DNA of 938 bases from a phage. Positions 1 through 938 of the stretch are shown piece after piece. The notes beneath the pieces were generated by a model that was given only the letters and a program-made list of their open reading frames with translations, did not search any database and was not told the origin of the DNA. Where the stretch lies: sequence record AB841357.1; one strand, given 5' to 3'. Both the position numbers and the translations under genes were made by a program. The first letter of the stretch is position 1. Every line of letters begins with the position of its first letter.

Positions 1-267
1 TTACGCCAGCTTTGCCACACCACGGTATTTCCCCGATACCTTGTGTGCAAATTGCATCAGATAGTTGATAGCTTTTTGTTTGTCGTTCTGGCTGAGTTCA
101 TGCTTACCGCAGAATGCAGCCATTCCGAATCCGGCTTGTGATTGCGCCATCCCCATAGCAGCCATCACATCAGTACCGGAAAGAGAGTCAGAAGCCGTGG
201 TCCGTGGTGAGTCGCTCATCATCGGGCTTTTTGGCGAATGAAATTTAGCTACGCTTTCGAGTCTCAT
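1..267 (-). CDS. Q: Lambda-type late-gene antitermination protein Q, N-terminal 88 codons; as read the ORF ends with TAA at positions 1-3 (window edge), far short of the ~207 aa lambda Q
   Basis: Minus-strand ORF, ATG = revcomp of 265-267, stop TAA = revcomp of 1-3. The translation MRLESVAKFHSPKSPMMSDS...HELSQNDKQKAINYLMQFAHKVSGKYRGVAKL matches my recollection of the lambda Q N-terminus almost residue for residue (from memory, no search run). Purine-rich SD-like AGAGGGGAAGG lies just upstream. The start overlaps the upstream gene's stop (ATGA). Confidence 0.8.
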   Translation of the reverse strand: MRLESVAKFHSPKSPMMSDSPRTTASDSLSGTDVMAAMGMAQSQAGFGMAAFCGKHELSQNDKQKAINYLMQFAHKVSGKYRGVAKLA

Positions 268-452
268 GGCCTTCCCCTCTTGCCCTGTTTGACCATCAGG
301 ACGCCGTTAACTATTACGTGACGCTCGCCTTTGCTGTCTCGGTTGTACTTGAGCACTGTTCCTCTTGCGCAGGAAAGCATCCTCGCCACTTCGGTCTGAT
401 TGCCTCGTGTCTGGATAAGAAGCTCTGGTATCGTTTGAATTGTGGCGTTCAT
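264..452 (-). CDS. ninH: NinH-like small protein (62 aa), putative Fis-like/HTH DNA-binding protein of the lambdoid nin region
   Basis: Minus-strand ORF, ATG = revcomp of 450-452, stop TGA = revcomp of 264-266. The translation MNATIQTIPELLIQTRGNQTEVARMLSCARGTVLKYNRDSKGERHVIVNGVLMV resembles lambda NinH as I recall it (TIPDML...GNQTEVARRL.C.RGTV.KY..D..G..H.IVN.VLMV), similar but clearly not identical. A strong SD (GGAG, 458-461 on minus) sits 5 nt upstream of the ATG. Position between rusA/ninG and Q is as expected for ninH. Confidence 0.72.
   Translation of the reverse strand: MNATIQTIPELLIQTRGNQTEVARMLSCARGTVLKYNRDSKGERHVIVNGVLMVKQGKRGRP
268..280 (-). promoter_or_regulatory. Ribosome-binding site for Q (purine-rich AGAGGGGAAGG), embedded in the 3' end of the ninH-like gene
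   Basis: Minus-strand sequence AGAGGGGAAGGCC immediately precedes the ATG at 267-265. Confidence 0.45.
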
Positions 453-813
453 ACGTTCTCCAGTTCGGTGATTTTTATTCCAAGCCGTCCGCCTGGTACT
501 TTCACACCACGAATTACGCGAATGTCATCGAATTGCTCGTCGTCTTCCGCAAATCCGGCGTGGATAAGGGAGTCGAGTAAACCCTTCAGGATGTTATCGA
601 GGTCGCGGCGGCGGGAGTCTGGAACGTCTGCGATGACTTTGATGCGGAGTCGTGATTTGGTGAAAATGTCTAACTTAAGTTGGCGGATGATTTGCTGAAC
701 GTCTTTTCNGTATTTCTGGCCTTTATCGCTGATGTAGTATTGGCTTCCCCGGTCTTTCGCCAGTAGGTATTCACCGACGGCGGGTATGGAAGCACAAACT
801 GATATTCGTTCAT
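449..813 (-). CDS. rusA: RusA-family Holliday junction resolvase (crossover junction endodeoxyribonuclease); reading frame interrupted by an apparent 1-nt indel in this read
   Basis: Minus-strand ATG = revcomp of 811-813. The N-terminal frame gives MNEYQFVLPYPPSVNTYWR (compare E. coli RusA MNTYSITLPWPPSNNRYYR) but hits TAG at 670-672. A second frame shifted by one base gives SQYYISDKGQKYxKDVQQIIRQLKLDIFTKSRLRIKVIADVPDSRRRDLDNILKGLLDSLIHAGFAEDDEQFDDIRVIRGVKVPGGRLGIKITELENV, ending at TGA = revcomp of 449-451. This matches RusA along its length, including the acidic motifs (RRRDLDN, EDDE). The span is 365 nt (not a multiple of 3), consistent with one missing base; the switch maps to 745-757. 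Confidence 0.8.
453..461 (-). promoter_or_regulatory. Ribosome-binding site for ninH-like gene (GGAG + 5-nt spacer), embedded in the 3' end of rusA
   Basis: Minus-strand sequence CTGGAGAACGT immediately precedes the ATG at 452-450. Confidence 0.5.
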
Positions 814-825
814 GACTTAATCTTT

Positions 826-832
826 CCCCTCC
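826..832 (-). promoter_or_regulatory. Putative ribosome-binding site for rusA (GGAGGGG)
   Basis: Minus-strand GGAGGGGAAAGATTAAGTC precedes the ATG at 813-811. The spacing is somewhat long (about 11-14 nt depending on which core is used). Nearby sequence contains ambiguous bases. Confidence 0.35.
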
Positions 833-938
833 NTCANCNATTATCGCCCTGCNTCCTGANTCACGCCTTCNAGGTGGTAAAGTCNGGCGTCTTTGNTTGT
901 CTAGATTANGGGNGCNTCGGNNNNTTTCNNNNGGACAC
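833..938. other. Low-quality sequence tail with numerous ambiguous bases (N); probably contains the 3' end of an upstream minus-strand gene that cannot be resolved
   Basis: About 19 N characters between 833 and 938, including runs at 921-924 and 929-932. Candidate minus-strand stop codons at 834-836 (TGA) and 841-843 (TAA) cannot be assigned to a frame reliably. Confidence 0.85.

Follow-up and report, generated by a model that had tools for sequence, protein, structure and literature searches.

An apparent early stop in a lambda-type Q gene is most probably an artefact of a HindIII vector/insert junction

The stop codon that seems to end a lambda-type Q gene after 88 codons, at the edge of the window (the whole stretch of DNA analysed, 938 nucleotides), does not reflect a truncated Q, which is not a real feature of this DNA. 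With a probability of about 93%, the window is a read of a HindIII clone in which bases 1-7 are leftover vector of the pUC19 type, and the stop is made of these vector bases combined with one dropped base. The TAA is a property neither of the phage nor, strictly, of the clone, and the window says nothing on the intactness of Q in its source, where the gene is most probably full length to judge from near-identical relatives. The headline of the initial annotation, a truncated and non-functional Q in a cryptic prophage, is not supported, the stop being located in seven non-phage bases that match a pUC19-type polylinker. Its other suggestion, that the first bases are an error or a junction artefact, was the right one and can now be worded as a HindIII vector/insert junction with one dropped base. 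The features of the window are collected in Table 1.

Table 1. Features assigned in the window, with the evidence on which each assignment is based
Feature	Position	Strand	Evidence or remark
Probable leftover vector TTACGCC, lacZ-alpha/polylinker …ATGATTACGCC(A)AGCTT, pUC19/M13mp19 type	1..7	+	Vector match, no phage/E. coli match
AGCTT, probable insert side of a HindIII A^AGCTT cloning junction	8..12		Preceding A of the site missing from the read
Lambda-type Q, codons 1-86 and first two bases of codon 87	8..267	-	Phage DNA, cut by the end of the cloned fragment
ninH, intact, 62 aa	264..452	-	ORF list; Pfam Phage_NinH full length, E = 2e-24; annotation of relatives
rusA (Holliday-junction resolvase), frame seemingly broken	449..813	-	Annotation of relatives, Pfam RusA
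DUF1364/HNH-like gene, 3' part, upstream of rusA	~810..938	-	Annotation of relatives

The reading frame in question is present as first described: it runs on the minus strand (267..1) over 88 codons from an ATG start, encodes MRLESVAKFH…GVAKLA and ends at a TAA that is the complement of bases 1-3, the complement of bases 1-7 supplying an apparent Ala codon followed by this stop. Its residues 1-87 are identical to residues 1-87 of lambda Q at 86 of 87 positions (BLASTP, E = 3e-64), and the 88-residue product scores 63.5 bits against the Pfam Antiterm model (PF03589), for which the cut-off is 26.7. By these measures the match is far above chance, and the frame can be regarded as a genuine lambda-type Q N-terminus, in agreement with the initial annotation. 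The sole amino acid difference from lambda Q, A23T (codon 23, window 199-201), is shared with Q of the E. coli YP3 prophage, which also has Thr23 where lambda has Ala, and is hence a natural polymorphism instead of an error in the read. Furthermore, window 8-267 shows zero differences from the YP3 prophage, and lambda differs from the Q part at 4 of 260 bases.

This similarity does not extend to the first base of the window. A megablast search with the whole window gave matches in 134 phage records (among 50,697) and in 1,722 E. coli records (5,426 complete genomes), and every phage or E. coli match listed starts at window base 8. When bases 1-60 were searched in the full set of 5,426 complete E. 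coli genomes, the listed matches started at base 8, with one starting at base 6, and none of them began at base 1. The match from base 6 belongs to strain MS 198-1 and stems from a synonymous CTG variant. At the window start, the aligned relatives (HK97, Kapi1, and YP3) read TTCAAGCTTTGCCACACC, with GAGCTT in HK97, and the window reads TTACGCC-AGCTTTGCCACACC.

The position at which homology ends is a restriction site in the relatives. Indeed, E. coli YP3, Kapi1, and lambda have TTCAAGCTTTGCC at the break, that is, a HindIII site (AAGCTT), which in lambda occupies 44140-44145 at the same point. In the YP3 locus, AAGCTT at 800-805 is the sole HindIII site in 2.5 kb, and the homology with the window begins at 801; the window itself has no internal AAGCTT. 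The initial annotation had given the lambda sequence at this place as AAGCTGGAGGGTAAC, which is wrong: from 44140 onward, NC_001416 reads AAGCTTGAAGGAAAT, i.e. gca aag ctt gaa gga aat. Since lambda carries this sequence with its HindIII site, the derivation of the window from lambda by two bases lost and one changed is discarded. As a side observation, the synonymous change of CTT to CTG in Q codon 87 of MS 198-1 (700-705 of the locus) abolishes the HindIII site, and this variant resembles the start of the string that the initial annotation gave as lambda (AAGCTGGA…).

On the other side of the break, TTACGCC followed by a HindIII site resembles the lacZ-alpha polylinker of pUC19/M13mp19 (…ATGATTACGCCAAGCTT…). 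This polylinker string was then searched in PLSDB and occurs verbatim in public records, for example pGMrib (…cacaggaaacagctatgaccatgattacgccaagcttgcatgcctgcaggtcgac…), and atgattacgccaagctt was found in a public pUC19-derived record. Compared with the vector sequence that precedes AGCTT (TTACGCCA), bases 1-7 of the window match with a one-base gap, which corresponds to the A of CCAAGC. In a chimera, the vector was taken as far as the first A of AAGCTT and followed by the YP3 prophage from AGCTT on; its alignment with the window starts at base 1, contains one 1-nt gap and is otherwise free of differences for hundreds of bases. A 7-mer would equal the vector, perfectly or after one base is skipped, with a chance of 6/4^7 = 3.7e-4, a figure that leaves aside the coincidence with the restriction site. 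The proposed identity of the vector is based on a short string, namely seven bases past the break with a match that needs one missing base. An insertion sequence (IS) end is an unlikely origin of these bases, since none of the common E. coli IS termini is known to begin with GGCGTAA; seven bases are too few for a similarity search.

A junction of another kind could also be envisaged, in which a phage with the CTG variant (…AAGCTGGAAGG…, as in MS 198-1) is joined to a vector end …ATGATTACG with no base missing, through an arbitrary or blunt join such as a nuclease-blunted EcoRI site in a pUC18-type vector. It is in line with the match of MS 198-1 from base 6, and ATGATTACG is common to lacZ-alpha vectors (part of it is seen in the pUC19-derived record). 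Such a join would nevertheless be unusual, would have only 5 bases matching the vector and would leave the coincidence with the HindIII site unexplained. Among the matches listed, solely the top-ranked of 1,232 E. coli records reaches base 6, and over 693 positions MS 198-1 has 12 differences from the window, as compared with 3 for YP3, which bears AAGCTT. With 12 mismatches against 3 and the HindIII coincidence unaccounted for, a CTG-variant genome is rejected as the likelier source, and we consider this type of junction very improbable. It would lead to the same end, a stop that is not phage sequence; the native match of MS 198-1 to base 6 leaves some uncertainty as to the exact base of the junction.

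The preferred reading, a HindIII clone, would account for the window as follows. The insert would be a HindIII fragment, either of an HK97/HK022-like lambdoid phage or of an E. coli prophage, placed in the HindIII site of a vector of the pUC19/M13mp19 type. Sequencing would have started on the lacZ-alpha (reverse-primer) side, and the sequence upstream of base 1 would then be vector (…CAGCTATGACCATGA). Vector trimming would have left seven bases, TTACGCC, and in the vector/site run CCAAGCTT one A would have been missed by the base caller, as is plausible that early in a read. In the reading direction of Q, on the complementary strand, the frame would then become …GCA AAG CT/G GCG TAA (the slash marks the break), in which the Ala and the stop are both spurious. 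Q would thus be cut by the cloning site, the same as the lambda HindIII site at 44141. We infer the exact vector and the primer, as well as the assignment of the missing A to base calling. When the missing A is restored, the Q frame reads …GVAKL-GVIMVIAVSCVKLLSAHNSTQHTSRKHKV* and runs into the vector (…AKLGVIMVIAVSCVKLL…) with no stop at this place, so that neither the vector bases nor the 1-nt miscall would by itself produce the in-frame TAA.

The distribution of errors along the window is that of an unpolished read. Relative to YP3, bases 8-700 contain 3 substitutions, none of them in the Q part, followed by 5 differences in 701-800 (two of which are inserted bases), 12 in 801-900 and mainly Ns and missing bases after 900; the 20 Ns of the window all lie within 709-932. 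Few differences up to about base 700 and then insertions and Ns point to a single-pass Sanger-type read beginning at base 1, beside the vector. Base 1 would lie 5 nt past the 3' end of the reverse primer in its 17-mer form and 17 nt past that of the 24-mer. Read starts are error-prone, and a dropped base near base 1 would therefore be unsurprising.

If the truncation existed in nature, the alternative would be a deletion, insertion, or rearrangement that joined foreign …TTACGCC to Q codon 87 and left a cryptic prophage with a defective antiterminator. In general, defects of Q are plausible in such prophages, and the frame as read does end at TAA. However, a 25-mer across the junction has 0 exact matches in 185,579 species genomes (one per species) and 0 in 2.9 million viral contigs, a junction 23-mer has 0 exact matches in metagenome contigs, and a look-up among 153 billion gene positions gave no product identical to the 88-residue one. 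The native sequence at this point, searched as a 24-mer, occurs in at least 120 viral contigs; at the 108 of these loci whose reading frame is not cut by a contig end, the full 207-residue Q, beginning MRLES, is found 106 times. The other 2 of the 108 complete frames encode 165 and 171 residues, with N-termini MSRRN… and MKLEA…, and may be mosaic or rearranged Q genes.

These two natural copies of other lengths would fit with a real truncation, against which stand the absence of the junction and of the 88-residue product in the collections just described and the visible state of the window as an unpolished single read. Furthermore, the breakpoint would need to hit exactly the sole HindIII site of the region, and the foreign bases would need to mimic the pUC19 polylinker, with the chance of 3.7e-4 given above. 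We consider a natural truncation even less probable than the blunt junction, and its narrower version, in which a rearrangement or insertion broke Q at the HindIII site by coincidence with inserted DNA ending in TTACGCC, the least probable of all; were this stop real, the source would be a defective prophage with an 88-residue Q stub.

The part of Q that follows the break can be described from the closest relative. Q of YP3 runs on as …KLEGNTKAKVLQ… to 207 residues, over which it is nearly identical to the solved lambda Q (7UBM/7UBN, 4MO1). The continuation by which the initial annotation would refute a truncation is thereby found, indirectly, in the relative that matches window 8-267 without a difference. 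In full-length YP3 Q, a weak CXXCXGXG match spans residues 113-152, and the alignment of the YP3 and lambda proteins displays Cys118, Cys121, Cys144, and Cys147. These four residues are reported as the zinc ligands of lambda Q in the 4MO1 work. The initial annotation was thus correct in placing the zinc-binding C-terminal part after residue 88, and the sole reason for its absence would be that the cloned fragment stops at the HindIII site. In addition, the Pfam Antiterm model (87 positions) matches full-length YP3 Q twice, in distinct stretches of which one covers residues 113-199, and the Q fragment of the window alone matches it at residues 24-81; the two matches hint at an internal duplication in lambda-type Q.

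With regard to gene content, the window can be read as an ordinary nin-region end of the HK97/HK022/HK620 type, with all genes on the minus strand. The order rusA-ninH-Q is the same as in HK97, HK022, and HK620, whereas lambda has ninI, which encodes a Ser/Thr phosphatase, between ninH and Q. The presence of ninI in lambda, together with the 4 of 260 differing bases in the Q part, indicates that the source is a lambdoid relative or an E. coli prophage and not lambda itself. In the lambda record, a recombination point is marked at 43884-43885, shortly before Q begins, and this annotation combined with the difference in gene order places a mosaic boundary right at the start of Q. Successive genes are joined by 4-base ATGA overlaps, between the ninH stop and the Q start (264-267) and between the rusA stop and the ninH start (449-452), a tight arrangement, usual for lambdoid nin regions, that is suggestive of translational coupling.

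The quality of the read also bears on rusA, for which the frame in the window encodes just 47 residues (670..813) and relatives have an intact RusA of 120 residues. This break appears to be due solely to read errors, namely one N and two additional bases within the low-quality interval 701-800, and the interruption of rusA is a second pseudo-defect of this origin. Beyond it, 19 of the 20 Ns fall in 810..938, the unreadable tail of the read.

The biology of this window is ordinary, a rusA-ninH-Q segment of the HK97/HK022 type that is common in E. coli prophages, and the source phage is not to be annotated with a defective late antiterminator on this evidence. What the case illustrates is that a very short vector tail and a single miscall can make a convincing premature stop. 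A reading frame that ends less than about 10 bases from the edge of a sequence should be checked against polylinkers and restriction sites, especially if the other end of the sequence decays into Ns.

The window can be compared with three known situations. It superficially resembles the pseudogenes of Q and other late regulators in cryptic lambdoid prophages, with which it shares an early stop in the Q frame. In such pseudogenes, however, the lesion lies within phage sequence that continues, whereas here the native sequence ends, with homology stopping at base 8 (or 6), vector bases take its place and no further copy of the junction was found. Lambda Q (REGQ_LAMBD; 4MO1, 7UBM/7UBN) is the closest characterized protein, with 86 of the first 87 residues identical and a common Pfam Antiterm assignment; it differs in that the cloned fragment would hold just the N-terminal 86-87 codons and that the genetic context is rusA-ninH-Q instead of the ninH-ninI-Q of lambda. 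The third parallel is the vector residue of clone reads, of the type handled by NCBI UniVec/VecScreen, since a few polylinker bases precede an insert that begins at a restriction site, the natural genomes searched lack the junction and read quality declines as in a single Sanger read. The present case departs from the usual vector residue by its size, seven bases with a 1-nt miscall, and by an in-frame stop that mimics a biological truncation. A leftover of 7 bases is probably too short for vector screens based on similarity.
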